DNA from: an uncultured Candidatus Binatia bacterium
GTDB lineage: Bacteria; Desulfobacterota; Binatia; UBA9968; JAJDTQ01
Assembly (NCBI GenBank): GCA_965242525.1
Contig: OZ251459.1
Location: forward strand, 320,001 to 384,000
Length of the DNA: 64,000 nt
Direction of reading: 5' to 3'
Position numbers and translations under genes: made by a program. Of the stretch, positions 3,455-53,596 are shown in pieces; within the stretch, counting starts at the first letter, position 1, and every line of letters starts with the position of its first letter. The notes under the pieces are model-generated. The model ran no database searches, was not told the DNA's origin, and saw nothing but the letters and a program-made list of their open reading frames with translations.

Positions 3455-5548
3455 ATGAAGACAGACCGCCCGTGCCCCCCCTCTACCGGGTCTGAACGCT
3501 TGGCCCTGCCGTTGCTGCTGCTTGCGCTGTCCACGTTGTTCCTGTGCAACGTGGACAAGGGACACTTCTACAGTCCCGGCAACCAGGACTGGTCCATCCT
3601 GGGCCTGACGATAGCCGAGAACCTGTCGCCGGATCACAATTTCCGGCTGTTCCGGTGGCTGGAACCGGCACCGGACGGCGCCCCCACCTACCGGATCCAC
3701 AGCCGCTTTCCCGTCGGCGGTTACGCACTCATCAAACTCGCCATCCTCCCATTCGGAAACGACCTCTCCGCCAGGATCCTCGCCGCCCGAATGCTCATGT
3801 TGCTGTTGTTCAGCGCCGCTGCGCTCCTGGCCTTCCACTCCCTCGCCCGGATCACCTTCCGCCGCTGGGTCGCGCTGGCCGCCACCCTCACGGCGTTCTC
3901 CTCCTACTACATGCTGTTCTACAGCAACGCGGTTTTCGTGGAGTACAGCGTGGACCTGTTCGCGGTCATGCTGGTGTTCCACGGCATGGTGGTGTTCGTG
4001 CAGGAGGGACGGTTCCGGCAGTTGCTGGCCAGGACCGGCGTTGCGCTGCTGCTGGGCTGGCACGTGTATGCGTTCCTGCTGCCGTTCATCCTCCTGGGCC
4101 TGGGGAGCGAGGCGGTCCGTGCGTGGAAGGACGGGACTGCGGTGAGGCTGCGCTCCGCCGGGGCGGCGGTGCTGCGCAGCCGCTACATGGCTCTTGGCCT
4201 GGCCTCGCTGCTGTTCGGCGCGGCCGTCCTGAGCTTCAACTTCGCCAACGAGTACGCCGCGTTCGGAGGAGAGACCGCGGTGACCGAACTGCCGTCGTTC
4301 CGGTCCATGCTCCGGCACACCGGACTGAACCGGGACTCCCCCCCCCTCGGTTCGTGGCTGTACTTCCTGGAACAGCAGTCCTTCCGTGTCTGCATGGCGT
4401 CCGTTCCATTCGTGCTGAGCGACTGGGGAATCGGTTTGCTGGAGTCGTTTCTCCCGGTTCGCCTTTCGGCGTCGGGCCTCTCGGGACCGGCGTTGTGGGT
4501 TTGCCTCCTGGCGTTGCTGCTGGCCGTCGGAGCATCCACGGCAGTCGTCCGCCTTGCGAGGCCGCTGTTGGCCCGGCGACACCGCATGCCGCTGGCCGCC
4601 CTTGCCCTGTCGGGGTTCTTCTGGGCCCTGCCCATGCGCCACAACGTTGCTTACCACCCTCACGAGGTCCTGTACTACCTGGGCCTCCCCCTGGTGTTCT
4701 ACTCGCTGCTCTTGCTGTACGTCCACAAGCGCTGGGGGCATCGTCCGGTAGTCGGCCTTGCCGCTGCCGTGGCCCTGCTCGCCTTCGTGGTCTCGGTCTT
4801 CCATCTGGATCACCGACGGGGCACGGACGCCCGTGCGGTGGAGCTCCAACAGGTCGCCATGGCCGAACTCGGGGCCATTCGCGAAACCATCCGGGGGAAG
4901 GTGGTCCTGCTACCCGGATCCGTCGAGCCGGAATGGTCCAGGCAATTATTCCCGGTCTTGACGTGGCAATACTACCTCACCGGAAGCGTCTGGATACACC
5001 ACCTCCACGACGTGGAACTTGCCGCCCGCGCCGCGGACTTCATCGTCGTCCATGACCGTGTGGAGAGCGACGCCCTGCTCACCCCCGGGAACGAACAGGT
5101 GTTCCTGTACGATTCCACAGGTATCGACGACCTGGTGGAGCTGTACCGGTCCACCTACCAACAGGCGGTGTCCGGAGACCCTGTGCCGCGCTCCTACTTC
5201 GACCTCCATCGCGGTGCACACAGCTACTTCGACGTCCATCTCGGTGACGACGCGGTGACCTTCGTCAAGGATCCCTGCACCCGGGAGGATGTGAGATCCC
5301 CGATCCAGGTGGACATAACCCCGGAAGACCGGAAGCACCTCTTCTTGATGCGTCCGGAGTACAGCTACAACCGTCCCACCCGCTGGATCAGGTTGGATAC
5401 ACATCCCGTGCGGTTCGAGGGGAAGTGCGTCGCTGTCGTTTCACTCCCCGATTACCCCATCTCCGGCATCAGGGCGAAACAGAAGCTACGCCGGTCCCGC
5501 GATGGGCGCAGGTCCTACTGGGAAGTGGAGATACCGGCGAGCCGGTAG
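3455..5548 (+). CDS. Multi-TM GT-C-like membrane protein with C-terminal 2-Cys domain, paralog 1
   Basis: Many hydrophobic helices; AENLSP, SRFPVGGYALIKLAILPFG, FNFANEY and KxPC..FEGKC motifs shared with five other copies. Confidence 0.85.
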   Translation: MKTDRPCPPSTGSERLALPLLLLALSTLFLCNVDKGHFYSPGNQDWSILGLTIAENLSPDHNFRLFRWLEPAPDGAPTYRIHSRFPVGGYALIKLAILPFGNDLSARILAARMLMLLLFSAAALLAFHSLARITFRRWVALAATLTAFSSYYMLFYSNAVFVEYSVDLFAVMLVFHGMVVFVQEGRFRQLLARTGVALLLGWHVYAFLLPFILLGLGSEAVRAWKDGTAVRLRSAGAAVLRSRYMALGLASLLFGAAVLSFNFANEYAAFGGETAVTELPSFRSMLRHTGLNRDSPPLGSWLYFLEQQSFRVCMASVPFVLSDWGIGLLESFLPVRLSASGLSGPALWVCLLALLLAVGASTAVVRLARPLLARRHRMPLAALALSGFFWALPMRHNVAYHPHEVLYYLGLPLVFYSLLLLYVHKRWGHRPVVGLAAAVALLAFVVSVFHLDHRRGTDARAVELQQVAMAELGAIRETIRGKVVLLPGSVEPEWSRQLFPVLTWQYYLTGSVWIHHLHDVELAARAADFIVVHDRVESDALLTPGNEQVFLYDSTGIDDLVELYRSTYQQAVSGDPVPRSYFDLHRGAHSYFDVHLGDDAVTFVKDPCTREDVRSPIQVDITPEDRKHLFLMRPEYSYNRPTRWIRLDTHPVRFEGKCVAVVSLPDYPISGIRAKQKLRRSRDGRRSYWEVEIPASR

Positions 5549-5593
5549 TCCCCGGTTCCCGGAGTCAGGACGGTCATGGTCCATGGAGGAGTC

Positions 5594-6472
5594 TCACGCC
5601 CATGGAAGGGGGTTCTTCGCCTGCGCCCACCCGGGACTTCCGGTCTCCGCGGAACTTTCCGAGACGCTCCGGTACAACTCCAGGTCCGCGGCGTAGCGGG
5701 CGGTCAGCAACGCCCTGTTCCGCTCGGTCAGGAGACGGCCCATTTCCGCTCGGGCGGCGCGCACGGCTTCCGACGACGGCCGCCATCCCGCCATGGTGTT
5801 CAGCATCGGCAACTCCGGCGCCGGCATGCCCAGGCGCATGGCGACTCGCTTCAGGTCCTCGTGGATGTTCTCGAGACGGCCGACGAAGTCGGGCAGGCGT
5901 CCTTCCTCGAGGAGTATCTGCGGGCGCTGGGACAGGTAGTGGGCGTCGGCGAAGGCGTCGGCGCCGTAAGGCGTGTTCAGCCACCGGCAGTAGTCGTCGA
6001 AGCTGTCCACCTCCCCCAGCCCGTAGAAATGGTCGTTGTAGAACCGTTGCCTCTCCTCCTTGCGGAGCCGGTTCACACCGTCGAAGCGTTTGTGGAAGAA
6101 ACGCATCTCCGCATAGAACGAGAGCGCCCGGTCGAAAGGGTGCCTGATGAAAGCGAAGCTGTAGTAGCCCTTTGCCTCCGGATACATGGCGCCGACGTCG
6201 GAGATGCTCTTGTCCACGATGAGTTCGGCGTCGGGGTCCGCGTTGCGTAGCGCCGCGATGAGGCTCCGCGACGCCACCTTGGGGTTGCAGAGCCAGAGAT
6301 AGCGGTACTTGCGCGAGACGATCTTCTCGGCGCCGAAGTTGGGGCGCCGCAGGGCGTTGACGGCGCACATCCTCGCGTCGTCGAACCTTCCGCGCAACGA
6401 GAGCTTGACGGCGTCCTTGACGATGGGCGGATGCGCAAGGAACGCGGCCAGTTGCTTCAACCTGCGCTGCAT
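5594..6472 (-). CDS. Sulfotransferase family 2 (PAPS-dependent) protein
   Basis: 5'-PSB-like NPKVASRSL, 3'-PB-like FIRHPFDRALSFY, DFVGRLEN, YAADLELY. Confidence 0.85.
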   Translation of the reverse strand: MQRRLKQLAAFLAHPPIVKDAVKLSLRGRFDDARMCAVNALRRPNFGAEKIVSRKYRYLWLCNPKVASRSLIAALRNADPDAELIVDKSISDVGAMYPEAKGYYSFAFIRHPFDRALSFYAEMRFFHKRFDGVNRLRKEERQRFYNDHFYGLGEVDSFDDYCRWLNTPYGADAFADAHYLSQRPQILLEEGRLPDFVGRLENIHEDLKRVAMRLGMPAPELPMLNTMAGWRPSSEAVRAARAEMGRLLTERNRALLTARYAADLELYRSVSESSAETGSPGWAQAKNPLPWA

Positions 6473-8513: not shown

Positions 8514-8731
8514 GGTCCCTCCTCGACGGGCGCCGCAGGACTCGGCCGCTCCGGGCCCGTCTTCACCCGTCCACGGATTCTAAGCCACGCCCGTCCGGTT
8601 GGCAAGACGAAGGGTTTCCACGTAAACTGCCCGCCCGGCGCCGCGGTCGGGAGGGAGGACCTCCCCGGCGCCCTTCGTCCGCGCCGTAAGGCGGCCGCGG
8701 AGAACTCCCGCGTTCTGCGACCGAGGAGAAG

Positions 8732-10381
8732 GTGCGTTTCCGACCCGACCGTCTCACCGTGCTGATCGCCGCGGCGGCAGTGCTGGGCGTCGCCTTGGTC
8801 CTGGCGCGGGAAGCCACCTACGGAGTGATGCTGGCGCATGACTCCATCAACTACGTGGTCTCGGCCCGGAACCTGTTGTCCGGAGAGGGTTTGACCCTCC
8901 ACAACGGGCGCTTCTACGTCGTATGGCCTCCCCTCTACCCGCTGCTGCTGGCCGCCGCCAGCCTGGGGACCCTGGATCCCTACGACGTGGCCGGCCCCGT
9001 CAACGCCGCCGTCTTCGGGCTGACTGTGTTGGTAGTAGGGCAATACCTGCGCACGCGCCTGGAGTCCCGCTTCCTCGTGGCGTGGGCGTGTCTCTCTGTC
9101 GCCTTGTCGGTCCCCATGGCGGAGTTGTCGTCGTGGGCCCTGTCCGGCCCCGTGTTCATCCTGTTGGCGACCCTCGCCCTCGTCCAGACCGACGGCTTCC
9201 TGACCGGGGGCAAGACCCGATCGCTGGTCCTGGCCTCGGTGTTCGCCGCCCTGGCCTGCCAAGCCCGGTACATCGGGGTGGCCGTAGCGGTCGTGGTCGG
9301 GCTGCTCTTCCTCTTCTCCGGAAAGGAAAGGGCGTCGCTGCGGCGGCGGGCCGGACGCTTGGCCGTATTCTCGCTGGTCGTAGCCGCGCCCATGGGCCTG
9401 TGGCTGCTGCGCAACTACCTGCTCACCGGGACCCTCGCGGGAGACCGTCCGCCATCCGATTACACTTTGCCGACGCTTCTGGGCGAGACGGTCGGTCGTC
9501 TGCTGCACGGGGGGTTGCTGTACCTCGGTCCCCCTTGGGTCCGGAGGCTGTCCCTCGCCGCGCTGGCGCTGGCGGCCATCGTCCTGGCAGCGCTCGGTTA
9601 CGTTTCCGCCAGGGAGCGGCGCCCCCCGTCCGACTGGCGTCCCTTCTACCTCTTCGGCGGCTTCGGGCTGGCGTACCTTGCCGTGCTCGCCTCGATGATC
9701 ATGATGTGGGGGGACTTGTTCCTCCAGTCGAGGTACCTGGTTCCGCTGTACCTTCCGTTCCTGGTCGTCGCGGTGTCTGCGCTGGACCGGTTGCTCGCCC
9801 GCGGGCGGCAGGGAACGTTGCCGGGAACCGTGGGCGGGCCGCCCCGGCCTGGAGCCATGCGCGCAAGGGCAGGGGGGAAGGGCATCGGCCGGGTCACGGC
9901 GTCGCTGACCCTTGGAGCCGTACGCACGAAGGCAGGGGGGAAGCCGAGCGTGCTGGCCGCCGTCCTGACGGTGGCCCTTTCCCTCTGGACGGTGGGGCAA
10001 GTCGTTGCCAACGTCCGCGCCATCGGCCGGGCGAACGCCCAGGACCTGTCCAGGGGCTACGGCGCACAACCCTGGGCGGTCTCCGAGACCCTGCGGTACG
10101 TCCGGGAAAACCCCCTCGTGGGCAAAGTGTACAGCAACGCGGCCGTCGTCGTGTCTCTCCACAACCATGGAACCGGACCTTGCAAGGGGGCGCCCAGGCA
10201 GTTGGAGAGGCTGCTCGAGAAGGCCCGGAACGGCGTGCACGTGGTCTGGTTCGAGGACTATTGGCGCCGCCACCCCTATGACTACGGCGTCGCCGACTTG
10301 CGCGCATCGCCGGAACTGGAGCCGGTGGCGGAACTGGCGGACGGCGCAATCTTCCGCGTGATCAGGGCAGGGAACCCCTGA
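8732..10381 (+). CDS. ArnT/PMT-like (GT-C) membrane glycosyltransferase
   Basis: HDSINYVVSARNLL, WPPLYPLLLA, RYIG, RYLVPLY; roughly a dozen hydrophobic segments; stop lies inside a MITE terminal repeat. Confidence 0.7.
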   Translation: MRFRPDRLTVLIAAAAVLGVALVLAREATYGVMLAHDSINYVVSARNLLSGEGLTLHNGRFYVVWPPLYPLLLAAASLGTLDPYDVAGPVNAAVFGLTVLVVGQYLRTRLESRFLVAWACLSVALSVPMAELSSWALSGPVFILLATLALVQTDGFLTGGKTRSLVLASVFAALACQARYIGVAVAVVVGLLFLFSGKERASLRRRAGRLAVFSLVVAAPMGLWLLRNYLLTGTLAGDRPPSDYTLPTLLGETVGRLLHGGLLYLGPPWVRRLSLAALALAAIVLAALGYVSARERRPPSDWRPFYLFGGFGLAYLAVLASMIMMWGDLFLQSRYLVPLYLPFLVVAVSALDRLLARGRQGTLPGTVGGPPRPGAMRARAGGKGIGRVTASLTLGAVRTKAGGKPSVLAAVLTVALSLWTVGQVVANVRAIGRANAQDLSRGYGAQPWAVSETLRYVRENPLVGKVYSNAAVVVSLHNHGTGPCKGAPRQLERLLEKARNGVHVVWFEDYWRRHPYDYGVADLRASPELEPVAELADGAIFRVIRAGNP

Positions 10382-10435
10382 ACGACGGTCCCCGTTCGTC
10401 CTGAGCGTAGCGAAGCGAAGTCGAAGGACGCGCTT
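10371..10435 (+). mobile_element. MITE fragment (one TIR plus palindromic core)
   Basis: GGAACCCCTGAACGA then CCGTTCGTCCTGAGCGTAGCGAAGCGAAGTCGAAGGACGCG; matches reverse complement of 62946-63055. Confidence 0.75.
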
Positions 10436-10479
10436 CTCGCGCAGCGCTGGCCATGCGGACCCGCTGGCGCTGCCGGCCG

Positions 10480-11266: not shown

Positions 11267-11376
11267 GGAACCTCCGATCAATCCCGGCTTGAGGCGCCTC
11301 TCCCCATGGGAAAGCGCGTCCTTCGACTTCGCTTCGCTACGCTCAGGACGAACGGGGGCAATCGTTCAGGGTTTCC
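11267..11376. mobile_element. 110-bp MITE
   Basis: Ends GGAACCTCCGATCAAT..ATCGTTCAGGGTTTCC; colinear with and same length as 62946-63055. Confidence 0.8.
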
Positions 11377-11456: not shown

Positions 11457-12491
11457 ATGGGTTGCCTGGACTTCCGACCTGCATGGGAGTTGCTCTATCG
11501 CAGCGGCCTTTCTGCCGCCGTCGGCCGCCGTTACGCCGGCATCGGGGCCATCTTCGCTTTCCACCGCGTGGCGCCCGACGTGTCCGTCCATCTGGACCGG
11601 GAGTTGTACGTCAGCGCCGGGTTCCTGGAGGCCTGGTTGGCGTCGGTGCGCAAGGCCGGCGTCCGGGTGGTCTCCATGGACGCCGCGGTGGAGCGCATCC
11701 GGGACCCCGGCCCCCGTCCCTCCGGGCGGCGTTTCGTCGTGGTCGCCTTCGACGACGGGTATGCCGACAACGTCACCTGCGCCCTGCCCGTACTGGAAAG
11801 GTTCGACGCGCCGTTCACTGTATATGTCACGACGGACCTGGTGGACGGCGGCGGCTATCCGTGGTGGCTCGGGTTGGAGCGCCTGTTCCGGGACAACGAT
11901 AGGGTTGACGCGGCGCCCATGGGGAGGGCGTTCACCGCCGCGTCCCTGGAGGAAAAGCGTAGAGCCGTGGCGCAAGTGACCGACTGGGTGGCCGCGGACA
12001 TGGAACGGCGCGCGCCGCTGCTGCGCCGGGTCTTCGATCGTTACGGCGTGTCCATGGGCGCCGCGGCCAGGGAGGCTGGACTGTCCCGGGAGCAACTGCG
12101 CGCGCTCGGCCGCCACCCGCTGGCGACCATCGGCGGCCATACCACGAGCCATCCCGAGTTGACGAGTCTGGGTGAGCCGCAGGCGTACCGTGAAATGGCC
12201 GACAACAAGGCATGGCTCGAGGACGTCTGCGGAAGCCCGATCCGTCACTTCGCCTATCCCTACGGCGCTTGCGGACCACGCGAAGCCGCGCTCGCCCGGA
12301 AAGCCGGTTTCGAGACCGCCGCAACCGTCGAGTCCGGTTGCCTGTTCCCCGAGCATCGGGACCATCTCCTGGCCCTGCCGCGATGCTCGGGCCGGGGTTC
12401 CCGGATGTGGCTGAGCTTCATGCACGCCCAACGGCACGGCCTGCCGCGTTTCATCCGGAGCCGGGGCGGCTGTCCCGTGGCCACGCTCTGA
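11457..12491 (+). CDS. Polysaccharide deacetylase (NodB/CE4)
   Basis: FHRV, VAFDDGYADN, GGHTTSHP, HFAYPYG. Confidence 0.9.
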   Translation: MGCLDFRPAWELLYRSGLSAAVGRRYAGIGAIFAFHRVAPDVSVHLDRELYVSAGFLEAWLASVRKAGVRVVSMDAAVERIRDPGPRPSGRRFVVVAFDDGYADNVTCALPVLERFDAPFTVYVTTDLVDGGGYPWWLGLERLFRDNDRVDAAPMGRAFTAASLEEKRRAVAQVTDWVAADMERRAPLLRRVFDRYGVSMGAAAREAGLSREQLRALGRHPLATIGGHTTSHPELTSLGEPQAYREMADNKAWLEDVCGSPIRHFAYPYGACGPREAALARKAGFETAATVESGCLFPEHRDHLLALPRCSGRGSRMWLSFMHAQRHGLPRFIRSRGGCPVATL

Positions 12492-14574
12492 CGGACCCGC
12501 GGCCGTGTCCGCCCACCGGTATCTCCGCGGTCCAGCCCTCGATCCGGCTCCGGATCCCGTAGGAGAACGGTTCGGAGAAGTACAGTCCCGTCCGGATGAC
12601 GGAGAGGGGATAGTCGGGGAGTGAAAGGACGGCGATGCACTTCCCGTCGAACAGCGTGAGGCGCTTGCGGAACCGGAAGTCGAGGTCGCCGGAGCCGTAG
12701 CGCCGGCGCAGTCTGCGCAGGTCTTCCGGGACCGCATCCACGAAGATCCAGTCCCCGACGTCCTCCCGGACGCAGGGCTGCTTGACGTAGGCCAGCGTGT
12801 GGTCACCGAGATAGACGTCGAAGCGGGAGTGCGCTGCGGGGTCTCCGGAGGACACGACCCGTTGGTACGCGGCCCGGTACGACTCCACCAGGTCGTCGAT
12901 ACCCGCGGCGTCGTACAGGAACACCCGTTGGTTGTCGGGGGTGAGCAGGGCGCGGCTCTCCACGCGGTCGCGGGTGACGAGGAAGTCCGCGCTGCGGGCG
13001 GCGGCTTCCACGTCGGGGGAGTGCGTCAGGACGCTTCCGGCGAGGTAGTATTTCCATGCGTGGCGCGGCCGTGTGGCCTGCGTGGACCATTCCGGCTGCA
13101 CGGACTCGAGCACCAGGACCACCTTCCTCCGGGTGGTTTCGCGGATGGCTCCGAGTTCGGCCATGGCGGTCTGCTGGAGTTCGGCCGCCCGTGGGTCCGG
13201 TCCCCATCGTTGGTCCATCTGGAAGGCGGAGGCCGCGAAGGCGAGCAGGGCCGCGGCGGCAAGGCCGACTGCCGGACGAGACCCCCATCGCTCGCGGAAG
13301 TACAGCAGGAGCAGCGAGTAGAGCGCCAGCGGGACGCCCACGTAGTACAGGGCGTCGTGGTTATGGTGTACGGAATTGTGGCGCATGGGCAGGGCCCAGC
13401 AGAACCCGGACAGGGCAAGGGCGGCCAGCAGGAGGCGTTGCCGCCCTTCCAGCAGCGGCCTCGCAAGGCGAACGAGGGCCGCGGCTGCTCCCACGGCCAG
13501 GAGCAACGCCAGGATGTATACCGACAACTCCGGCCCCGAGATGCCCGGGGCCGAAAGGCCGAGGTCGAGGAACCACCCCGCCGGATCGACTGCCCGGTGG
13601 GTGAGCAGGAACGGAACGGAGGCCACGCAGACGCGAAAGAACTGCTGGCGCAGGAAGTCCGGCCACCAACCCACCGGGGCGAAGTCCCGGTCCAGTCCGG
13701 TGCGCCTGAGCATGGACTGGACCGATGGCAGTTCGGTCACCGGGGTCTCGCCTCCGAGGGCGGCGTACTCGTTGGCGAAGTTGAAGGCGAGGAGGGCTGC
13801 TCCGAACAGCAGCGCGGCCAAGCCCAGGGCGGTGTAGCGGCTGCGCAGCACTGCAGCTGCAACGGAGCGCAAACGGAGCCGGGGCGCAGTTCCGTGCTTC
13901 CATGCCCGAAGGGCTTCCCGGGCAAGACCCAGGAGGATGAAGGGAAGCAGGAAGGCGTACACGTGCCAGCCCAGCAGCAGCGCCACGCCGGTCTTGGCCA
14001 GCAACTGCCGGAACCGTCCCTCCTGCACGAAGACGGTCATGCCGTGGAAGGCCAGCATGACCGCGAACAGGCCCATGCCGTACTCGTTGGAAACCGCGTC
14101 GCCGTAGAACAGCATGTAGTAGGAGGAGAAGGCCATCGAGGTGGCTGCCAGTGCGACCCAGGGGCGGGAGGTGATGCGTGCGAGGGAGTGGAAGGCGAGG
14201 ACCGCGGCGGCGCTGAACAGGAGCAGCATGAGGATGCGGGCGGCCAGGATCTTTGCGGAGAGGTCGTTTCCGAAGGGGAGGATGGCGAGCTTGAGGATGG
14301 CGTAACCGCCGACGGGAAAGCGGCTGTACATCCGGTATTTCGGGGCGCCGCCCGGTCTCGCGCGCAACTCCGTGAACAACCGGAAACCGTGGTCGGGGGA
14401 CAGGTTCTCGGCGACGGCCAGGTTTATGGAGGAAATCCCGTCATGGGCGCCGGGACGGTAGAAACGTGCCTTGTCCACGCCGTACAGGAACAACGTGGAC
14501 AGCGCGAGCAGCAGCAACGGCAGGGCAAGGCGTGGGGGCCGGTTTCGAGCCCAGTGGATCAGGGCGTCTCGCAT
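12451..14574 (-). CDS. Multi-TM GT-C-like membrane protein, paralog 2
   Basis: Starts MRDALIHWARNRPPRLALPLLLL; same family motifs; the 5' extension in the ORF track is an off-frame reading of the amidohydrolase. Confidence 0.85.
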   Translation of the reverse strand: MRDALIHWARNRPPRLALPLLLLALSTLFLYGVDKARFYRPGAHDGISSINLAVAENLSPDHGFRLFTELRARPGGAPKYRMYSRFPVGGYAILKLAILPFGNDLSAKILAARILMLLLFSAAAVLAFHSLARITSRPWVALAATSMAFSSYYMLFYGDAVSNEYGMGLFAVMLAFHGMTVFVQEGRFRQLLAKTGVALLLGWHVYAFLLPFILLGLAREALRAWKHGTAPRLRLRSVAAAVLRSRYTALGLAALLFGAALLAFNFANEYAALGGETPVTELPSVQSMLRRTGLDRDFAPVGWWPDFLRQQFFRVCVASVPFLLTHRAVDPAGWFLDLGLSAPGISGPELSVYILALLLAVGAAAALVRLARPLLEGRQRLLLAALALSGFCWALPMRHNSVHHNHDALYYVGVPLALYSLLLLYFRERWGSRPAVGLAAAALLAFAASAFQMDQRWGPDPRAAELQQTAMAELGAIRETTRRKVVLVLESVQPEWSTQATRPRHAWKYYLAGSVLTHSPDVEAAARSADFLVTRDRVESRALLTPDNQRVFLYDAAGIDDLVESYRAAYQRVVSSGDPAAHSRFDVYLGDHTLAYVKQPCVREDVGDWIFVDAVPEDLRRLRRRYGSGDLDFRFRKRLTLFDGKCIAVLSLPDYPLSVIRTGLYFSEPFSYGIRSRIEGWTAEIPVGGHGRGSVRAWPRDSRPGSG

Positions 14575-23495: not shown

Positions 23496-23598
23496 TTCCA
23501 GCGCTCTTCCGGCTTTCGAGCGGGCGGGGTCTTGCGGCCAAGGTACGGCGGGGTGGATCCCGAAGCGCCGCTTCCGGTTCGGTGTCCCGCCGACGGGA

Positions 23599-31164: not shown

Positions 31165-33275
31165 AGCCTCCCGGTCTCCGTCCGGAACGCCTCACCCTGT
31201 GGTTGCTGCTGCTCGCACTGTCCACGTTGTTCCTGTGCAACGTGGACAAGGGGTACTTCTACCGTCCCGGCAGCCCCAACTGGAATACGGCGAAGAACCT
31301 GGCCATCGCCGAGAACCTGTCGCCCCACCACCGTTTCCGGTTGTCGCCGGGGCTGCGCCCGGGACCGGGCGGCGCCCCCGCCTACGAACTGTACAGCCGC
31401 TTTCCCGTGGGCGGTTACGCGCTCATCAAACTCGCCATCCTCCCCTTCGGGAACGACCTGTCCGCAAAAATCCTCGCCGCCCGAATGCTCATGTTGCTCT
31501 TGTTCAGCGGCGCCGCGCTCCTGGCCTTCCACTCCCTCGCCCGGATCACCTCCCGCCGATGGGTCGCATTGGCCGCCACCCTCACGGCGTTCTCCTCCTA
31601 CTACATGCTGTTGTACGGCAACGCGGTTTCGGTGGAGTACAGCGTGGACCTGTTCGCGGTCATGCTGGCCTTCCACGGCATGGTGGTGTTCGTGCAGGAG
31701 GGACGGTTCCGGCAGTTGCTGGCCAGGACCTGCGTTGCGCTGCTGCTGGGGTGGCGCGTGTACGCCTTCCTGCTTCCCTTCATCCTCCTGGGCCTGGGGA
31801 GCGAGGCGGTCCGGGCGTGGAAGGACGGGACTGCGGTGAGGCTGCGCTCCGCCGGGGCTGCGGTGCTGCGCAGCCGCTACACGGCCCTTGGCCTGGCCGC
31901 GCTGCTGTTCGGCGCGGCCGTCCTGGGCTTCAACTTCGCCAACGAGTACACCGCCTTCCGAGGCGAGACGCCGGTGACCGAACTGCCGTCGTTCCAGTCC
32001 ATGCTCAGGCGGACCACCGGCGTGGGCCAGGACCCGGACGCCTCCTTCCACTCCAGGGGGTGGCTGCGCTTCCTGCGACAGCAGTTCTACCGTGTCCGCG
32101 TGGCGTCCGTTCCAGGTGTGCTGACCGAATGGGGCGCCGGTCTGCGGGGGCGGTTCCCCTCGGTTCCCTCTTCGGCGTCCGGCCTTTCGGGGCCGGAGTT
32201 GTCGCTTTACCTGCTGTCGTTGCTGCTGGCGGCGGTCGCCTCCGCGGTGGCGGTTCGGCTTGCAAGGTCGCTGTTGTCCCGGCGGCAATGCATGCTGCCG
32301 GCCGTCCTTGCCCTGTCGGGGTTCTGCTGGGCCCTGCCCATGCGCCACAACGTTGCCGACCACCTTCACGAGGCCCTGTACTACGTGGGCGTGCCGCTGG
32401 TGTCGTACTCACTGTTCCTGCTGTACGTCCACCAGCGCTGGGGGCGTGGTCCGGTGGTCGGCCTTGCGGTTGCGGCGCTGCTCGCCTTCGTGCTCTCCGC
32501 CTTCCAGATGGAACGACGATGGCGCCCCGACGCCCGGGCGGCAGAGGTCCAGCGAACCGCCATGGCCGAACTCGGGGTCATCCGCGAGACCACCCGGGGA
32601 AAGGTGGTCCTGGTCCCCGGTTCCGTCGAGCCGGAATGGTCCGGGCAGTTCACACAGCGGAACTACGGATCGGACTACGAATGGAGGTACTACCTCGCCG
32701 GAAGCGTCCTGACGCAATTCCCCGACCTCACGCGTTTACCTCACCTGTACCCCGCCGACCCCCGGGACCCCGCCGGAAACGTCCTGGCGCAATCCCTCGA
32801 CGTGGAAGCGGCCGCCCGCGCCGCGGACTTCATCGTCACCCGCGACCGCGTGGAGAGCGACGCCCTGCTCACACCCGGGAACCAACGGGTGTTCCTGTAC
32901 GGTTCCGCGGGCATCGACGACCTGGTGGAGTTGTACCGGGCCACGTACCAACGAGCGGTGTCCGGAGAACCTGCGGCGCGCTCCCGGTTCGACGTCTATC
33001 TCGGTGACCGCGCGCTGTTCCACGTCAAGGATCCCTGTGTCGTGGAGGACGCAGGTCACTGGATCGTCGTGGAGGTGTATCCGGAAGACCCGAAGGACCT
33101 GCCCGAAGAGTACGAACGGTACGGCGACAACCGCGACTTCCGGCTCTATGGGCACCCCGTGCTGTTCGAGGGGAAGTGTATTGCGGTGGTTTCACTCCCC
33201 GATCATCCCATCTCCCGCATCACGACGGGACAACTGCAACACGGCTGGGAAGTGGAGATACCGGCGAGCCGGTAG
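31161..33275 (+). CDS. Multi-TM GT-C-like membrane protein, paralog 4
   Basis: ATGA overlap with paralog 3; family motifs. Confidence 0.87.
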   Translation: MKPPGLRPERLTLWLLLLALSTLFLCNVDKGYFYRPGSPNWNTAKNLAIAENLSPHHRFRLSPGLRPGPGGAPAYELYSRFPVGGYALIKLAILPFGNDLSAKILAARMLMLLLFSGAALLAFHSLARITSRRWVALAATLTAFSSYYMLLYGNAVSVEYSVDLFAVMLAFHGMVVFVQEGRFRQLLARTCVALLLGWRVYAFLLPFILLGLGSEAVRAWKDGTAVRLRSAGAAVLRSRYTALGLAALLFGAAVLGFNFANEYTAFRGETPVTELPSFQSMLRRTTGVGQDPDASFHSRGWLRFLRQQFYRVRVASVPGVLTEWGAGLRGRFPSVPSSASGLSGPELSLYLLSLLLAAVASAVAVRLARSLLSRRQCMLPAVLALSGFCWALPMRHNVADHLHEALYYVGVPLVSYSLFLLYVHQRWGRGPVVGLAVAALLAFVLSAFQMERRWRPDARAAEVQRTAMAELGVIRETTRGKVVLVPGSVEPEWSGQFTQRNYGSDYEWRYYLAGSVLTQFPDLTRLPHLYPADPRDPAGNVLAQSLDVEAAARAADFIVTRDRVESDALLTPGNQRVFLYGSAGIDDLVELYRATYQRAVSGEPAARSRFDVYLGDRALFHVKDPCVVEDAGHWIVVEVYPEDPKDLPEEYERYGDNRDFRLYGHPVLFEGKCIAVVSLPDHPISRITTGQLQHGWEVEIPASR

Positions 33276-33363: not shown

Positions 33364-33441
33364 GCGGATGGACAACGCGCAGGGTATCCGTTACCATGAG
33401 CCTCGTCTCACCGTCCGGAAACCGTCTGGGAGAACCGCCTC

Positions 33442-34239
33442 GTGAAGACCATCGGCATCGTCGGCTGCGGCGCCATCGGCAGGGGCTTGTTGCAAGCCGT
33501 GGATGCGGGAGCGGTGGCGGCCAGGGCATGCGTCACCAGTCGCACGGAAGGCCCGTGCCGGGCGTTCCTGGAGACCTTGGGCGCGCCGGCGCCGTTCCTG
33601 GCCCGGGAGGAGCTCATCGCCCGGTCCGACGTGGTGGTGGAGGCCGCGGGGGGCGCCGTGGTTCCGGAGCTTGCCCGGGATGTGTTCGACGCCGGCAAGG
33701 ACCTCATGGTCATCAGCGTGGGCGCGCTGCTGGACCACCCGGAGGTCATGGACAGGGCCCGGGAGACCGGGCGCCGGCTGCTCCTGCCTTCCGGCGCCAT
33801 CGCGGGACTCGACGGCGTCAAGTCGGCGTGCGCCGGGCGCGTGGACCACGTGACCATCACCACCCGGAAGCCGCCCCACGGACTGGAGGGCGCGCCGTAC
33901 CTGGTGCGGCGCGGCGTCTCCCTGGCGGGGCTGACGGAGCCCCGCCAGGTCTTTGCGGGGACCGCCCGGGAGGCGTGCCGGGCCTTTCCGGCCAACGTCA
34001 ACGTGTCCGCGGCGGTGAGCCTGGCGGGCCTGGGGCCGGACGCCACGCGCATCCGCATCCTGGCGGTGCCCGGGCTGGAGCGGAACTGCCACGACGTGGA
34101 GGTGGAGGGCGAGTTCGGGCGCCTCGCCATGCACATCGAGAACGTCCCCACCGAGAACCCGCGCACCGGCCGCCTCACGGTCCTGTCCATGGTGCGTTCC
34201 CTCCAGGATGCGCTGGACCCCGTGCGGGTGGGGACCTGA
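33442..34239 (+). CDS. nadX: L-aspartate dehydrogenase
   Basis: GIVGCGAIG, PSGAIAGLD, FPANVNV, NCH, NPRTG. Confidence 0.9.
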   Translation: MKTIGIVGCGAIGRGLLQAVDAGAVAARACVTSRTEGPCRAFLETLGAPAPFLAREELIARSDVVVEAAGGAVVPELARDVFDAGKDLMVISVGALLDHPEVMDRARETGRRLLLPSGAIAGLDGVKSACAGRVDHVTITTRKPPHGLEGAPYLVRRGVSLAGLTEPRQVFAGTAREACRAFPANVNVSAAVSLAGLGPDATRIRILAVPGLERNCHDVEVEGEFGRLAMHIENVPTENPRTGRLTVLSMVRSLQDALDPVRVGT

Positions 34240-34269
34240 CGAGCGGGTGAGGGCTTCGCGGGTTTCCCC

Positions 34270-35865: not shown

Positions 35866-35961
35866 GACCGGCCCGCCCTGCCGCGGCCCGCCCCCCGGCA
35901 AGCGCCGCGGCCGGGGCCGCGGATGGCGCGCCGTCACGAATTGCGGTAGGGTGGGGCGGGT

Positions 35962-47876: not shown

Positions 47877-50051
47877 ATGCCGCAAACGTCGATTCCTGGA
47901 AGACGGAGACATACCACCGTGCCCCCGCTCCCCCCCGGGACCGGGTGCAGGCCTGAACGCCTCCCCCTGTCGTTGCTGCTTCTCGCACTGTCCACGTTGT
48001 TCCTGTGCAGCATGGACAAGGGGTACTTCTACCGTTTCGGCGAGCATAACTGGGATACGGGGAAGAACTTGGCCATCGCCGAGAACCTGTCGCCCGACCA
48101 CCACTTCCGGTTGTTCCTGGCGCGGCGCCAAGGGTCGGGCGACGCTCCGATCCACCAGATGTACAGCCGCTTTCCCGTGGGCGGATACGCGCTCATCAAA
48201 CTCGCCATCCTCCCATTCGGAAACGACCTGTCCGCCAGGATCCTCGCCGCCCGAATGCTCATGTTGGCGTTGTTCAGCGCCGCTGCGCTCCTGGCCTTCC
48301 ACTCCCTCGCCCGCATCACCTCCCGCCGCTGGATCGCGCTGGCCGCCACCCTCATGGCGTTCTCCTCCTCCTACATGCTGTTCTACAACGACTCGGTTTC
48401 CGGGGAGTACAGCATGGACCTGTTCGCGGTCATGCTGGTGTTCCACGGCATGGTGGTGTTCGTGCAGGAGGGACGGTTCCGGCAGTTGCTGGCCAGGACC
48501 TGCGTTGCGCTGCTGCTGGGCTGGCACGTGTATGCGTTCCTGCTGCCGTTCCTCCTCCTGGGCCTGGGTAGCGAGGCGGTTCGGGCGTGGAAGGACGAGA
48601 CGGCGCTGTGGCCGCGTGCGCGCTCTGCCGGGGCGGCGGCGCTGCGCAGCCGCTACATGGCCCTTGGCCTGGCCGCGCTGCTGTTCGGCGCGGCCGTCCT
48701 GGGATTCAACTTCGCCAACGAGTACGCCGCGTTCGGAGGCGAGACCCCGGTGACGGAACTGCCGTCGTTCCGGTCCATGCTCAGGCGGACCACCGGCGTG
48801 GGCCAGGACCTGGACGCCCCTTTCCACTCCGGTGGGTGGCCGGGCTTCCTGCGAGAGCAGTTCCACCGTGTCTGCGTGGCGTCCGTTCCATGGGTGCTGA
48901 CCGACTGGGGCGCCGGTTTGCGGGGGCGGTTCCCTCCGGTTCCCTTTTCGGCGTCCGGCCTTTCGGGGCCGGAGTTGTCGGTTTACCTGCTGTCGTTGCT
49001 GCTGGCGGTGGCCGCATCCGCGGCAGCGGTTCGGCTTGCGAAGCCGCCGTTGGCAGGCCGGTCCCGCCTGCTGCTGGCCGCCCTTGCCCTGTCCGGGTTC
49101 TTCTGGGCGCTGCCCATGCGCCACAACGTTGCCGCCCACCCTCACGAGGCCCTGTACTACGTGGGCGTGCCGCTGGTGTCGTACTCACTGCTCCTGCTGT
49201 ACGTCCACCAGCGCTGGGGGCGTGGTCCGGTGGTCGGCCTTGCGGTTGCGGCCCTGCTCGCCTTCGTGGTCTCCGCCTTCGGGACGGAACGACGGTGGCG
49301 CCCCGACGCCCGGGCGGCAGAGGTCCAGCGAACCGCCATGGCCGAGCTCGGGGCCATCCGCGAGACCACCCGGGGAAAGGCGGTCCTGGTCATCGGGTCC
49401 GTCGAGCCGGAATGGTCCTGGCAGGTCGCGCACCTGTACTACGAATGGAGGTACTATCTCGCAGGTAGCGTCCTGGCGCACTCCCTCCACACGGAACACC
49501 CCTGGAGCTACTATCCCGCCGGAAGCGCGTTGACACACTTCCCGGACATGGAAGACGCCGCCCGCGCCGCGGACTTCATCGTCACCCGAGACCATGTGGA
49601 GAGCGGCGCCCTGCTCACACCCGGGAACCAACGGGTGTTCCTGTATGATTCCGCGGGTATCGACGACCTGGTGGAGTTGTACCGGGCCACGTACCAACGG
49701 GTGGTGTCCGGAGAACCTGCGGCGCGCTCCCAATTCGACGTCTATCTCGATGAGGACGCGCTGTTCCACGTCAAGGAGCCCTGCGTCCGGGAGGACGTGG
49801 GATCGAAGGTCTTCGTGAAGGTCGTCCCGGAAGACCCGAAGGACCTTCCCGAAAGGATCCCGCGGCATGGTTCCAGGGGTCTTCGTGTTTTCTTCCAGCG
49901 AAGCGGCGTGCTGTTCGAGGGGAAGTGCATGGCGATTCTTCCGCTTCCCGATTATCCCGTCTCCGTCCTCAGGACGGGACAGCAGCCGTCCCGACACCCC
50001 GGCTGGAAAGGACCCCCCGGCTGGGAAGTAGAGATACCGGCGAGCCGGTAG
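47877..50051 (+). CDS. Multi-TM GT-C-like membrane protein, paralog 5
   Basis: Starts MPQTSIPG; family motifs; the track's 5' extension is an off-frame reading of the permease. Confidence 0.85.
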   Translation: MPQTSIPGRRRHTTVPPLPPGTGCRPERLPLSLLLLALSTLFLCSMDKGYFYRFGEHNWDTGKNLAIAENLSPDHHFRLFLARRQGSGDAPIHQMYSRFPVGGYALIKLAILPFGNDLSARILAARMLMLALFSAAALLAFHSLARITSRRWIALAATLMAFSSSYMLFYNDSVSGEYSMDLFAVMLVFHGMVVFVQEGRFRQLLARTCVALLLGWHVYAFLLPFLLLGLGSEAVRAWKDETALWPRARSAGAAALRSRYMALGLAALLFGAAVLGFNFANEYAAFGGETPVTELPSFRSMLRRTTGVGQDLDAPFHSGGWPGFLREQFHRVCVASVPWVLTDWGAGLRGRFPPVPFSASGLSGPELSVYLLSLLLAVAASAAAVRLAKPPLAGRSRLLLAALALSGFFWALPMRHNVAAHPHEALYYVGVPLVSYSLLLLYVHQRWGRGPVVGLAVAALLAFVVSAFGTERRWRPDARAAEVQRTAMAELGAIRETTRGKAVLVIGSVEPEWSWQVAHLYYEWRYYLAGSVLAHSLHTEHPWSYYPAGSALTHFPDMEDAARAADFIVTRDHVESGALLTPGNQRVFLYDSAGIDDLVELYRATYQRVVSGEPAARSQFDVYLDEDALFHVKEPCVREDVGSKVFVKVVPEDPKDLPERIPRHGSRGLRVFFQRSGVLFEGKCMAILPLPDYPVSVLRTGQQPSRHPGWKGPPGWEVEIPASR

Positions 50052-51345: not shown

Positions 51346-51376
51346 GGGGAGACTATCCGGCTTCCGGTGCGGGGTG

Positions 51377-53596
51377 TCAAGGGAGCCGCCCGGGCCGGCC
51401 CACCGGCAATTCTACTTCCCAGCCGCGGCGTCCTTTCCAGTCGGGGAGCCGGTATGGCTGCTGTCCCGTCCTGACGCTGGAGACGGGATAATCGGGAAGT
51501 GGAAGGACGGCCATGCACTTCCCCTCGAACAGCACGCCGCTTTGTTGGAAGAGGATGTAAAGCTCTTCGGATCCGTGCCGCCGGCGCTCTTCGGGAAGGT
51601 CCTTCGGGTCTTCCGGGACCACCTCCACGAAGGCCGTCAATCCCACGTCTTCCCGGACGCAGGGATCCTTGACGTGGAAGATGGCGTCCTCACCGAGATG
51701 GACGTCGAAGTGGGAGCGCGCCGCAGGTTCTCCGGACGCCACCCGTTGGTGCGTGGCCCGGTAGAACGCCACCAAGTCGTCGATACCGGCCGAACCATAC
51801 AGGAATACCCGTTGGTTGCCGGGCGTGAGCAGGGCGCTGCTCTCCACGCGGTCGCGGGTGACGAGGAAGTCCGCGGCGCGGGCGGCGGCTTCCATGTCCG
51901 GGAAGTGCGTCAACGCGCTTCCGGCGGGGTGGTATCTCATGGCGCCTTGCGTGTGGAGGGAGTACGCCAGGACGCTTCCTGCGAGGTAGTACCTCCATTT
52001 GTACTGCTGCTGTGTGACCTGCCAGGACCATTCCGGCTCGACGGACCCGAGGACCAGGACCGCCTTTCCCCGGGTGGTTTCGCGGATGGCCCCGAGTTCG
52101 GCCATGGCGGTTCGCTGGATCTCTGCCACCCGGGCGTCGGGGCGCCACCGTCGTTCCGTCCCGAAGGCGGAGACCACGAAGGCGAGCAGGGCCGCAACCG
52201 CAAGGCCGACCACCGGACCGCGCCCCCAGCGCCGGTGGACGTACAGCAGGAGCAGTGAGTACAGCACCAGCGGCGCGCCCACGTAGTACATGGCCTCGTG
52301 AGGGTGGTAGGCAACGTTGTGGCGCATGAGCAGGGCCCAGCAGAACCCGGACAGGGCAAGGGTGCCCAGCAGCATGCGGCGCCGCCCTGCCAACAGCGGC
52401 TTCGCAAGCCGAACCGCGGCCGCGGATGCGGCCACCGCCGCCAGCAACGACAGGAGGTAAACCGACAACTCCGGCCCCGAAAGGCCGGACGCCGAAAAGG
52501 GAACCGGCGGGAGCCACCCCCGCAAACCGGCGCCCCAGTCGGTCAGCACCCATGGAACGGACGCCACGCGGACACGATGGAACTGCTGTCGCAGGAAGCG
52601 CAGCCACCACCTGGAGTGGAAGGGGGCGTCCAGGTCCTGGCCCACGCCGGTGGTCCGCCTGAGCATGGCCCCGAAGGACGGCAGTTCCGTCACCGGGGTC
52701 TCGCCTCCGAACGCGGCGTACTCGTTGGCGAAGTTGAATCCCAGGACGGCCGCGCCGAACAGCAGCGCGGCCAGGCCAAGGGCCATGTAGCGGCTGCGCA
52801 GCACCGCCGCCCCGGCAGAGCGCGCACGCGGCCACAGCGCCGTCTCGTCCTTCCACGCCCGAACCGCCTCGCTACCCAGGCCCAGGAGGAGGAACGGCAG
52901 CAGGAACGCATACACGTGCCAGCCCAGCAGCAGCGCAACGCAGGTCCTGGCCAGCAACTGCCGGAACCGTCCCTCCTGCACGAACACCACCATGCCGTGG
53001 AAGGCCAGCATGACCGCGAACAGGTCCACGCTGTACTCCACGCAAACCCTGTTGCCGAACGACAGCATGTAGTAGGAGGAGAACGCCATGAGGGTGGCGG
53101 CCAGCGCGACCCAGCGGCGGGAGGTGATGCGGGCGAGGGAGTGGAAGGCCAGGAGCGCAGCACCGCTGAACAGGAGCAACATGAGCATTCGGGCGGCGAG
53201 GATCCTGGCGGACAGGTCGTTTCCGAATGGGAGGATGGCGAGTTTGATGAGCGCGTAACCGCCCACGGGAAAGCGGCCGTACAGTTCGTAGGCGGGGGCG
53301 CCGCCCGGTCCCGGGCGCAGTCCCGGCGACAACCGGAAACGGTGGTGGGGCGACAGGTTCTCGGCGATGGCCAGGGTCTTCCCCGTGTTCCAGGTAGGGT
53401 GCTCCGAACGGTAGAAGTACCCCTTGTCCACGTTGCACAGGAACAACGTGGACAGTGCGAGCAGCAGCAACCACAGGGTGAGGCGTTCCGGCCGGCCCCC
53501 CGGGGAGGATGAGGCGGGCTTCACGAATGGTCCGTCTCCGTCTTCCAGATCGACGGCTTCCTTGTCGGGCGGTGGATCCGGGATGGCGCGCGTCAT
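51377..53596 (-). CDS. Multi-TM GT-C-like membrane protein, paralog 6
   Basis: ATGA overlap with the upstream arylsulfotransferase; family motifs. Confidence 0.87.
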   Translation of the reverse strand: MTRAIPDPPPDKEAVDLEDGDGPFVKPASSSPGGRPERLTLWLLLLALSTLFLCNVDKGYFYRSEHPTWNTGKTLAIAENLSPHHRFRLSPGLRPGPGGAPAYELYGRFPVGGYALIKLAILPFGNDLSARILAARMLMLLLFSGAALLAFHSLARITSRRWVALAATLMAFSSYYMLSFGNRVCVEYSVDLFAVMLAFHGMVVFVQEGRFRQLLARTCVALLLGWHVYAFLLPFLLLGLGSEAVRAWKDETALWPRARSAGAAVLRSRYMALGLAALLFGAAVLGFNFANEYAAFGGETPVTELPSFGAMLRRTTGVGQDLDAPFHSRWWLRFLRQQFHRVRVASVPWVLTDWGAGLRGWLPPVPFSASGLSGPELSVYLLSLLAAVAASAAAVRLAKPLLAGRRRMLLGTLALSGFCWALLMRHNVAYHPHEAMYYVGAPLVLYSLLLLYVHRRWGRGPVVGLAVAALLAFVVSAFGTERRWRPDARVAEIQRTAMAELGAIRETTRGKAVLVLGSVEPEWSWQVTQQQYKWRYYLAGSVLAYSLHTQGAMRYHPAGSALTHFPDMEAAARAADFLVTRDRVESSALLTPGNQRVFLYGSAGIDDLVAFYRATHQRVASGEPAARSHFDVHLGEDAIFHVKDPCVREDVGLTAFVEVVPEDPKDLPEERRRHGSEELYILFQQSGVLFEGKCMAVLPLPDYPVSSVRTGQQPYRLPDWKGRRGWEVELPVGRPGRLP

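Follow-up and report, generated by a model that had tools for sequence, protein, structure and literature searches.

A large, unnamed family of predicted GT-C-fold membrane glycosyltransferases in an uncultured Candidatus Binatia bacterium and its tie to a GtrB-like lipid-sugar synthase

Bacterial genomes usually encode one or a few GT-C enzymes, whose acceptor specificity is not easily deduced from their sequence. PMT enzymes have 11 transmembrane (TM) helices, a cytosolic N-terminus, and a luminal C-terminus. The RgtA-D enzymes are a set of several paralogs using one donor on different acceptor positions. In the three-component glycosylation systems described in PMC9574508, a GT-A enzyme synthesizes a C55-P-sugar, which a GtrA flippase carries across the membrane; the sugar is then transferred by a GT-C enzyme that is specific for its acceptor and poorly conserved. 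In this study, we analyzed 64,000 nucleotides of an uncultured Candidatus Binatia bacterium (assembly GCA_965242525.1, contig OZ251459.1, positions 320,001 to 384,000; the window, to which plain coordinates refer), which carry six copies of a family of membrane proteins with a predicted GT-C fold. Comparison of the copies points to diversifying selection on two loops of a C-terminal beta-sandwich, and the family is tied to a GtrB-like synthase that would supply its donor.

The six copies were identified from their open reading frames (ORFs), translations, and alignment. They lie at 3455-5548 (+; copy 1, 697 aa), 12451-14574 (-; copy 2, 707 aa), 29068-31164 (+; copy 3, 698 aa), 31161-33275 (+; copy 4, 704 aa), 47877-50051 (+; copy 5, 724 aa), and 51377-53596 (-; copy 6, 739 aa), the stop of copy 3 overlapping the start of copy 4 by 4 nt. 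Copy 4 (P0004) served as the reference for structure and residue numbering. All six ORFs are intact (697-739 aa) and can be aligned end to end; copies 2-6 share 67-73% protein identity with copy 1, and pairwise DNA identity among the six is 78-89%. The window has a G+C content of about 68%, and the copies sum to about 12.8 kb, a fifth of it, as the initial annotation had reported along with their positions. The motifs that it quoted were also all found in the alignment: the loop strings, the invariant Glu (E159 of copy 4), RHN..H.HE, EPEW..YYL, and the two Cys (C626 and C673). It had described a six-copy family, and this number holds for the window but not for the genome (4,232,224 bases, 98.96% complete; G000 below), in which we found 28 intact copies and one split across two frames by a frameshift. 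Together they total about 59 kb, or 1.4% of the genome, and include an 11-gene head-to-tail array at C1:938492-962159.

No family was assigned to the window copies by Pfam, NCBIfam, PADLOC, or PHROGs, and Pfam PMT and PMT_2 matched none of the six even at E<=1. The only sequence-profile match in the PDB, an RND transporter, was dismissed as spurious noise from TM composition. A search of 1.84 billion representatives with a profile of the six copies retrieved 2226 clusters at 50% identity, 691 of them at E<=1e-30. Since the family lacks Pfam and NCBIfam membership and yet fills so many clusters, it is, as judged by these profile searches, a large and so far unnamed separate branch outside Pfam PMT (PF02366) and PMT_2 (PF13231), which are of the CAZy GT39/GT83 type. 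Literature searches on Binatia/Binatota, sponge symbionts, glycosyltransferases, and GT-C paralog expansion found no paper on this family.

An AlphaFold2 model of copy 4, built from an alignment of 66 diverse family members, reached a predicted local distance difference test score (pLDDT) of 85.7 and a predicted TM-score (pTM) of 0.90. All of the top 39 Foldseek matches of this model in the PDB were GT-C enzymes. The best match by VIA-align was ArnT (5f15; Z 18.3, 441 residues aligned, root-mean-square deviation 5.1), followed by Pmt1/2 and Pmt4 (Z 17.0-17.3), STT3 (Z 16.7), PglB (Z 15.4), and AglB (about 15), with Z ranging from 18.3 to 13 over ArnT, PMT, STT3, PglB, AglB, ALG9/12, and DPY19. 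Weak Pfam matches, below family membership, were seen to PMT in 7 of the 66 members (best 2e-6) and to PMT_2 in one, and the nearest ESM Atlas clusters carry the names RgtA/B/C/D-like, PMT_2, and ArnT. The GT-C-like fold that had been proposed is borne out by the Foldseek result and by the Z-scores of ArnT (18.3) and Pmt1/2 (17.3), and on the predicted structure the family belongs to the GT-C fold glycosyltransferase superfamily.

From the helices of the model and the charge distribution, we predicted that the N-terminus lies in the cytoplasm, that 11 TM helices follow, and that the C-terminal domain (residues 455-704) is periplasmic. The predicted cytoplasmic loops carry 2.2, 1.8, 5.9, 3.6, and 2.5 Lys plus Arg, and the short periplasmic loops 0-1. 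The conserved Cys pair of the C-terminal domain fits an oxidizing compartment. External loop 1 (EL1) comprises residues 26-99, external loop 2 (EL2) is short (154-158), and a long external loop (266-344) is partly disordered (325-343 with pLDDT <50). The candidate catalytic acid of EL1 is D29 (codon 31245..31247, +), which lies in a [VF]-D-K-G motif just after TM1. EL2 bears the conserved acidic motif [D/N]154-x4-E159 (31620..31637, +).

Conservation of these residues was examined in 74 copies (28 from G000 and 46 from G023, a sister species) and in 59 distant relatives that are 35-46% identical. D29 is Asp in all 74 copies, and Asp or Glu in 45 of the 59 distant relatives and in 13 of the 14 copies of an array in Dehalococcoidia. 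E159 is kept in 74 of 74 copies and is Glu or Asp in 58 of 59 distant relatives; D154 is kept in 52 of the 59. H172, R182, Q185, K189, N258, E262, R284, and R395 are each kept in 47-58 of the 59. In the 14-gene Dehalococcoidia array, D154, E159, H172, R182, Q185, N258, E262, R284, and R395 are present in every copy; at K189, where copy 4 has Arg, the residue is counted as kept in 14 of 14 in one tally but not in another. By topological position, D29 and E159 would correspond to catalytic residues of ArnT or PglB. The family retains the residues that an active GT-C enzyme should have, and the proteins are presumably enzymatically active.

The C-terminal domain, folded alone, gave a pLDDT of 83 and consists of an alpha/beta part followed by a beta-sandwich. 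According to DSSP of the models, the periplasmic alpha/beta subdomain spans residues 455-602 (32523..32966, +) and contains indel-rich inserts after EPEW, and the beta-sandwich module spans residues 603-704 (32967..33272, +) and includes the conserved Cys pair C626/C673. For the beta-sandwich, a separate fold search found only generic Ig/FN3/CBM-like matches (best Z 7.4; FN3, CBM56, Ig-like) and Foldseek found nothing at E<=0.001; the fold-search rows spanned only model residues 149-250, so that the alpha/beta subdomain was barely covered. The module of about 100 aa also occurs doubled at the C-terminus of two PMT/PMT_2-like membrane proteins of G000, of 792 aa (C1:1171765-1174143, +) and 809 aa (C1:3995672-3998101, -). 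By eye, these two proteins look near-identical in the printed sequence. In other proteins, the module forms 6-10 tandem repeats on Wzy_C (O-antigen ligase/polymerase type), PMT_2, or PMT proteins, and it stands beside a weak GT87 match on P0260. Its occurrence on PMT, PMT_2, Wzy_C, and GT87-type proteins marks the beta-sandwich, on domain matches, as a portable periplasmic module of membrane glycoconjugate enzymes.

One family copy of G000, ending at C1:895526, is followed after 44 nt by a GtrB/PgfS/ArnC-like GT2 gene (C1:895570-896589). The GT2 has full-length matches to the PHROG 'GtrB-like O-antigen conversion' (5.4e-100) and to NCBIfam PgfS (1.7e-86) and ArnC (3.5e-52), and it is the sole full-length protein of its kind that we found in G000. 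An orthologue was found in one of the 24 other species of the genus, G023 (80% identical), where it lies directly beside a family copy, and G023 is also the only congener with full copies of the family. Other genomes of the order have only GT2s that are 31-47% identical. Beyond the phylum, a 65%-identical GT2 lies directly upstream of a family gene in a metagenome-assembled genome (MAG) of Latescibacteria (E 2e-156), about 8 kb from a six-gene family tandem array in a Nitrospirales MAG, and near genes with the C-terminal module in a Gammaproteobacteria MAG. The GT-C proteins of those phyla are merely 38-47% identical to the window copies, versus 65% for the GT2. One GtrA-family gene (C1:139244-139597), a putative flippase, gave the single PF04138 match above the cut-off in G000 and is not linked to any of the copies. 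Adjacency, co-occurrence, and conservation across phyla give good support to a tie between the family and a GtrB-like lipid-sugar synthase, which would place the family in Gtr-type periplasmic glycosylation. The initial annotation could not assign the genes to a described system; the GT2 would now provide such an assignment, although the family itself is still unnamed.

We then examined the variation among the copies as per-column entropy by predicted region. Only 3 of 215 TM-helix columns reached at least 2 bits, compared with 20 of 179 columns of the periplasmic loops, 30 of 250 of the C-terminal domain, and 7 of 60 of the cytoplasmic loops, the N-terminal tail being counted among the last. 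The 74 copies contain 68 distinct variants of the EL1 stretch (residues 33-47), 73 of the EPEW segment, and 73 of residues 644-668; the two genomes have just one EL1 variant and one EL2 variant in common. Synonymous and non-synonymous differences per site (pS and pN) are 0.25 and 0.167 for the family overall. The TM segments had been called nearly identical even at synonymous sites. This was not confirmed: the TM helices of the six window copies have a pS of 0.203, versus 0.236-0.245 elsewhere, and only TM4-TM5 (residues 159-196) is markedly quiet (pS 0.05-0.11). Conservation of third codon positions is highest (0.92-0.99) at residues 15-34 and 145-183, which adjoin the variable stretches of EL1 and EL2. 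The related claim of a constant TM scaffold with variable external loops is right in that the variation sits in loops, but the cytoplasmic loops are about as variable as the external ones. Per-site variability was correlated with that of the independent 14-gene Dehalococcoidia array (Spearman 0.41 overall, p 3e-27; 0.49 in periplasmic loops; 0.31 in the C-terminal domain), whose copies are 57-76% identical, with synonymous sites presumably saturated, and were compared by variability profile only.

For selection tests, synonymous and non-synonymous events were counted by parsimony on a FastTree topology, and the regions had been fixed beforehand from the list in the initial annotation. The ratio of non-synonymous to synonymous rates (omega) for the whole gene was 0.68-0.71. 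For the gene outside the listed regions, it was 0.41 in the 11-copy array, 0.48 in all 28 copies of G000, and 0.56 in the 46 copies of G023. Omega exceeded 1 in the beta-sandwich loops at residues 628-667 (33042..33161, +). At residues 628-640, it was 2.1 in the array (p 0.04), 1.56 in all 28 copies (p 0.008), and 1.06 in G023. At residues 644-667, it was 6.6 in the array (3.5 synonymous and 69.5 non-synonymous events, p 2e-6), 1.53 in all 28 copies (p 7e-4), and 1.56 in G023 (p 8.5e-5). The array copies are 91-93% identical, residues 644-667 align unambiguously among them (one 1-codon gap), and the differences are almost all non-synonymous point changes. The counts thus demonstrate, at the level of codons, diversifying selection on the beta-sandwich loops.

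The loops of the TM domain gave lower values. For the two EL1 regions, omega was 1.40 and 1.23 in the array and 1.21 and 1.08 in all 28 copies (not significant), and 0.95 and 0.92 in G023; the variable stretch of EL1 at residues 32-46 (31254..31298, +) gave 1.2-1.4 in G000 and 0.95 in G023, not significant. For EL2, omega was 1.08 in the array and 1.59 in all 28 copies (not significant), and 0.80 in G023. The EPEW segment, the insert, and the tail gave 1.04-1.44 in G000 and 0.89-1.19 in G023, none significant, and the His-rich loop gave 0.49 in the array, 0.51 in all 28 copies, and 0.69 in G023. The loop regions differed from the rest of the gene in their ratio of non-synonymous to synonymous events with Fisher p of 1e-25 to 1e-59. 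The diversifying selection that had been suggested for all of these loops was therefore found at residues 628-667, with 644-667 replicated in G023, but not in the loops after TM1 and around the Glu (0.8-1.7, not significant) or in the His-rich loop (0.5-0.7).

The copies also turn over rapidly between species. G023 has 48 copies, 46 of them intact, which account for about 2.5% of its 4.0 Mb, and 74 of the 77 copies in the two genomes keep intact frames of 680-760 aa, three being broken. Window positions 1-25000 are colinear with a region of G023, in which the flanking genes show 84-95% DNA identity, pS of 0.10-0.15 (0.22 for the deacetylase), and pN of 0.014-0.066. Between the syntenic family genes, divergence is at the level of paralogs (pS 0.247 and pN 0.182 for copy 1; 0.261 and 0.162 for copy 2), and the G023 gene syntenic to copy 1 bears the EL1 loop of window copy 4. 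G023 has an additional tandem copy after the copy-1 counterpart, and a sulfotransferase with three tandem family copies (about 7.7 kb) after its cox cluster. At the same cox/DUF420 site, the window has a 338-aa ORF without a family match (23446-24459), and 23288-24456 is an insertion/deletion hotspot relative to G023. In a joint tree, the 46 G023 copies were monophyletic and no one-to-one orthologue pair was seen; the lowest between-genome pS of the family was 0.194, above that of housekeeping genes. Pairs with only 81-90% overall identity share identical runs of 488, 377, 290, 222, and 199 nt; the 488-nt run is shared by copy 2 and the copy at G000:C1:3920662 (84% identical overall), and the 199-nt run by copies 5 and 6. 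In a PHI-type test of recombination, none of 500 permutations reached the observed value (z -6.3 with all 28 copies and -4.1 with the array). The missing orthologues, the shifts in copy number, the identical runs, and this test together indicate birth-and-death evolution with segmental gene conversion, as far as comparison of two genomes can tell.

Gaps of 13-50 nt separate the 11 array genes, except for one pair that overlaps by 11 nt, and the genes share a conserved GGAGG-like motif that resembles a ribosome-binding site (RBS). Because of this close spacing and the shared motif, they are probably co-expressed. At the array junctions (G000:C1:940561-962159), an indel of about 10 bp decides whether a protein ends in ...PASR/PAGG or reads on to a ...WPGPSHGG tail. 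Three array copies have an extra SRIEVGQALH-type insert near the C-terminus.

The distribution of the family is patchy. Full copies were found in one of the 24 other species of the genus, G023. In another, G002, the matches were confined to ORFs carrying the C-terminal module, and no match at E<=1e-30 was obtained in the other 22 congeners or in 16 genomes from other families of the order. Relatives that are 38-47% identical occur in MAGs titled Dehalococcoidia, Chloroflexota, Latescibacterota, Nitrospirales, Gammaproteobacteria, and Pseudomonadales. We counted copies in five MAGs of other phyla. One Dehalococcoidia MAG (3.5 Mb) has at least 32 full-length matches and about 14 that are split in two, a second has the 14-gene tandem array and two shorter genes, the Nitrospirales MAG has six tandem family genes, and the Latescibacterota and Gammaproteobacteria MAGs have fewer copies. 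Judged from these gene counts and alignments, paralog expansion is independent in at least three other lineages, with the same loops variable.

With respect to habitat, window DNA at 28000-37000 was present in 20 sequencing runs of 8 studies. Five of these runs (two studies) are labelled 'sponge metagenome' and contain 30-42% of the sampled words. Contigs from sponge metagenomes cover the single-copy flanks of the window at about 98% identity; the comparison of contigs, from four runs, was confined to these flanks, because the family region attracts short contigs of many paralogs, possibly from other organisms. Reports in PMC9999580 and PMC8262859 describe Binatota from sponges.

Taken together, we favor, with rather better than even confidence, the view that the proteins are GtrC-like GT-C transferases that share one donor and have diversified in acceptor recognition. 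A single GtrB/ArnC/PgfS-like GT2 would charge polyprenyl phosphate with one sugar at the cytoplasmic face of the membrane, and the lipid-sugar would then be flipped across. Each paralog would pass the sugar on to its own acceptor site, located on envelope glycans or on secreted proteins. The choice of acceptor would be set by external loops 1 and 2 around D29 and [D/N]154-E159 together with the two fast beta-sandwich loops. The repertoire would be renewed by tandem duplication, loss, and segmental gene conversion, with point substitutions in the beta-sandwich loops being positively selected. In this proposal, we infer the type of donor, the enzymatic activity, the acceptor differences among paralogs, and the purpose, a complex or variable surface coat.

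Several observations weigh against this proposal. Omega is about 1 (0.8-1.7, not significant) in the TM-domain loops that adjoin the presumed active site, which relaxed constraint explains equally well and with which a mixture is compatible too. Omega itself comes from a counting method on a single tree despite recombination, under a strong bias in third-position G+C. Per residue, the cytoplasmic loops vary about as much as the periplasmic ones (7 of 53 versus 39 of 179 columns of at least 1.5 bits, p 0.24). That the selected loops at 628-667 face the active site is an assumption about the model. As for the donor, the GT2 adjoins only 1 of the 28 copies in G000 and the genes form no single cluster. 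At E<=1e-40, the GT2 had no match in three genomes with many copies, two of Dehalococcoidia and one of Latescibacterota. The donor could therefore differ, or could be a glycan linked to undecaprenyl pyrophosphate (Und-PP), as for oligosaccharyltransferases and ligases. In addition, no named relative was found for any family member.

The alternative that fares best, which we hold as tentative and clearly less probable than diversified GtrC-like transferases, is that the proteins are protein O-glycosyltransferases of the PMT/Pgf type, which would place a sugar on Ser/Thr-rich secreted or surface proteins and choose their clients via the beta-sandwich. PMT and PMT_2 are the only Pfam models that touch the family, and an Ig-like module with selected loops resembling complementarity-determining regions (CDRs) would suit protein recognition. 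The family is also abundant in MAGs of Dehalococcoidia, to our knowledge a group without lipopolysaccharide. Among NCBIfam models, the partner GT2 is matched best by PgfS from the Pgf machinery of streptococci, which PMC5856776 and 10.1101/2024.05.05.592596 describe as a protein-glycosylation machinery. However, the GT2 matches phage GtrB of O-antigen conversion more strongly, the best structural match of the family is ArnT, a lipid A modifier, the beta-sandwich also occurs on proteins of the Wzy_C/O-antigen-ligase type, and no acceptor proteins were identified.

It is unlikely, in our estimation, that the paralogs belong to the same enzyme class but are redundant or simply tolerated, so that their loop differences reflect neutral drift on a scaffold kept by gene conversion. 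Such drift would account for the omega of about 1 (0.8-1.7, not significant) in EL1, EL2, the EPEW segment, and the tail of both genomes, for the high overall omega (0.68-0.71), and for the variable cytoplasmic loops, and it would agree with the demonstrable gene conversion, the fast change in copy number, and the three broken copies in the two genomes. It does not readily explain the omega of 6.6 (p 2e-6) at residues 644-667 of the young array, where the alignment is indel-free, or the values of about 1.5 in two further sets. Constraint on the rest of the gene (0.41-0.56), the retention of 74 of 77 copies intact with all candidate catalytic residues, and the independent expansions in at least three other lineages with the same loops variable also argue against redundancy.

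The initial annotation had left open transferases or sensors, of which a repertoire of transferases fits. We regard it as very improbable that the proteins are sensors, receptors, or transporters that use a GT-C-like scaffold with variable ligand-binding loops. The variable external domains and the lack of a known family model or activity would allow such a role, but acidic and basic residues of the GT-C active-site type, D29 and E159 among them, are conserved in 74 of 74 copies and across phyla, the lipid-sugar synthase is linked by adjacency, co-occurrence, and cross-phylum conservation, and Pfam scans detected no signalling domain. Least credible of all is programmed variation, by silent cassettes feeding one expressed gene as in pilE/pilS or vls or by a diversity-generating retroelement: conserved stretches flank the variable loops (third position 0.92-0.99) and gene conversion is segmental, but every copy is full-length with its own start codon, the spacing of the array genes and the RBS-like motif of each argue against it, a search of the genome (98.96% complete) for reverse transcriptase (RVT_1) gave no match although positive controls matched, and the array loops differ by point substitutions with almost no synonymous change and are thus not imported cassettes.

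The gene neighbourhood offers few further clues. Among 86 flanking ORFs at the 22 other G000 copies, and among 150 of 184 at 45 loci of other phyla, there was no fixed partner save an occasional GT2. Neighbours of the G000 copies are mostly housekeeping genes, and sulfotransferase, polysaccharide deacetylase, epimerase, and GDSL-like genes recur only loosely. In the window, a Sulfotransfer_2 gene (5594-6472, -) is convergent with copy 1, and polysaccharide deacetylase genes at 11457-12491 (+) and 55263-56123 (+) adjoin copies 2 and 6. An arylsulfotransferase-like ORF (53593-55302, -; weak match, 3e-7) is translationally coupled to copy 6, its stop overlapping the start of that copy by 4 nt. 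These neighbours may link the family to sulfated or deacetylated glycans. A 563-aa ORF (8690-10378, +) without a Pfam match has weak NCBIfam matches to 'LA_3751/LA_3752 family putative glycosyltransferase' (3e-9) and 'LIC_10190 family membrane protein', and could represent a further GT-C-like membrane protein. In MAGs of other phyla, we observed, close to family genes, eukaryote-like repeat proteins with cadherin and leucine-rich repeats, FG-GAP/ASPIC, and NHL (L096:7967-10138, -; L067:1212-3380, -; L089:167-718, +).

Two further elements of the window were recorded. An intergenic repeat of about 110 bp with a 45-bp core (11267-11376 and 10368-10438) resembles repetitive extragenic palindromes (REP) or miniature inverted-repeat transposable elements (MITE) and has many matches in G023 too. 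It seemed to flank G023 copies and was considered as an element linked to the family; this was rejected, as the repeat is REP-like and genome-wide (767 blastn hits). At 56923-62942 (-) lies a possible cluster for a ribosomally synthesized and post-translationally modified peptide. It comprises, all on the minus strand, genes for a modification enzyme of the MbnB/TglH/ChrH family (61887-62942, E 1e-73), a 282-aa ORF of no assigned family (61070-61915), an ABC exporter (59263-61110), an HlyD-type adaptor (57924-59303), and a TauD-family dioxygenase (56923-57900).

Dozens of close enzymes that probably share one donor amount to a natural experiment on how acceptor recognition is encoded in GT-C enzymes. 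The family is also a candidate for how uncultured sponge symbionts build and vary their surface, an open question in that symbiosis, and the family, its C-terminal module, and the pairing with the GT2 could each become an annotation model. More speculatively, and with considerable doubt, we suggest that it may be a horizontally shared 'glycan-coat diversifier' of sponge symbionts. One conserved GtrB-like synthase and tens of GT-C paralogs, each with positively selected CDR-like loops on its Ig-like module, would produce a combinatorial, strain-specific envelope pattern that decides recognition by host phagocytic cells or phages, and unrelated phyla would have expanded it in parallel in the same host tissue.

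Among the known systems, ArnT (CAZy GT83; 5ezm and 5f15 of Cupriavidus metallidurans) is the best structural match and likewise has an ArnC-like GT2 partner. The Rhizobium RgtA-D lipid A/core galacturonosyltransferases lend their name to a neighbouring Atlas cluster. The family differs from ArnT in its sequence (9-11% identity), in its other periplasmic domain (alpha/beta plus Ig-like beta-sandwich), and in having about 11 TM helices; it differs from both ArnT and RgtA-D in its number of paralogs (28-46 versus 1-4) and in being found also in Dehalococcoidia MAGs. PMT enzymes (CAZy GT39; Pmt1-Pmt2 of 6p25 and Pmt4) are the second-best structural matches and have the same predicted topology, but the family lacks a MIR domain, its extra-membrane domain is C-terminal, and Pfam PMT misses the window copies. 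The family shares the GT-C fold with PglB, AglB, and STT3 (Z 15-17) and, like them, has acidic residues in its first two external loops, a long external loop that is disordered, and at its C-terminus a periplasmic domain, which in oligosaccharyltransferases helps to bind the acceptor. Unlike these enzymes, no WWDYG-type motif was seen in the family, and the GT2 points to a monosaccharide-P-lipid rather than an Und-PP-oligosaccharide.

The GtrABC systems, with their serotype-specific GT-C enzyme GtrC, and the Csd and Pgf systems of Gram-positives resemble the present one in that a GtrB-like GT2 lies beside a family gene and a GtrA-family gene is present in the genome. In GtrABC systems as described in PMC9574508, the GT-C component is also the sequence-variable, acceptor-specific part. 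Known systems, however, pair one GT2 with one or a few unrelated GT-Cs and are often prophage-borne, whereas here dozens of paralogs that are 65-90% identical are scattered among housekeeping genes, with the flippase unlinked and no phage context (PHROGs and PADLOC gave nothing for the GT-C). The system would thus be a variant of Gtr-type or ArnT/PMT-like periplasmic glycosylation, and its new feature would be one donor enzyme that serves dozens of GT-C paralogs.

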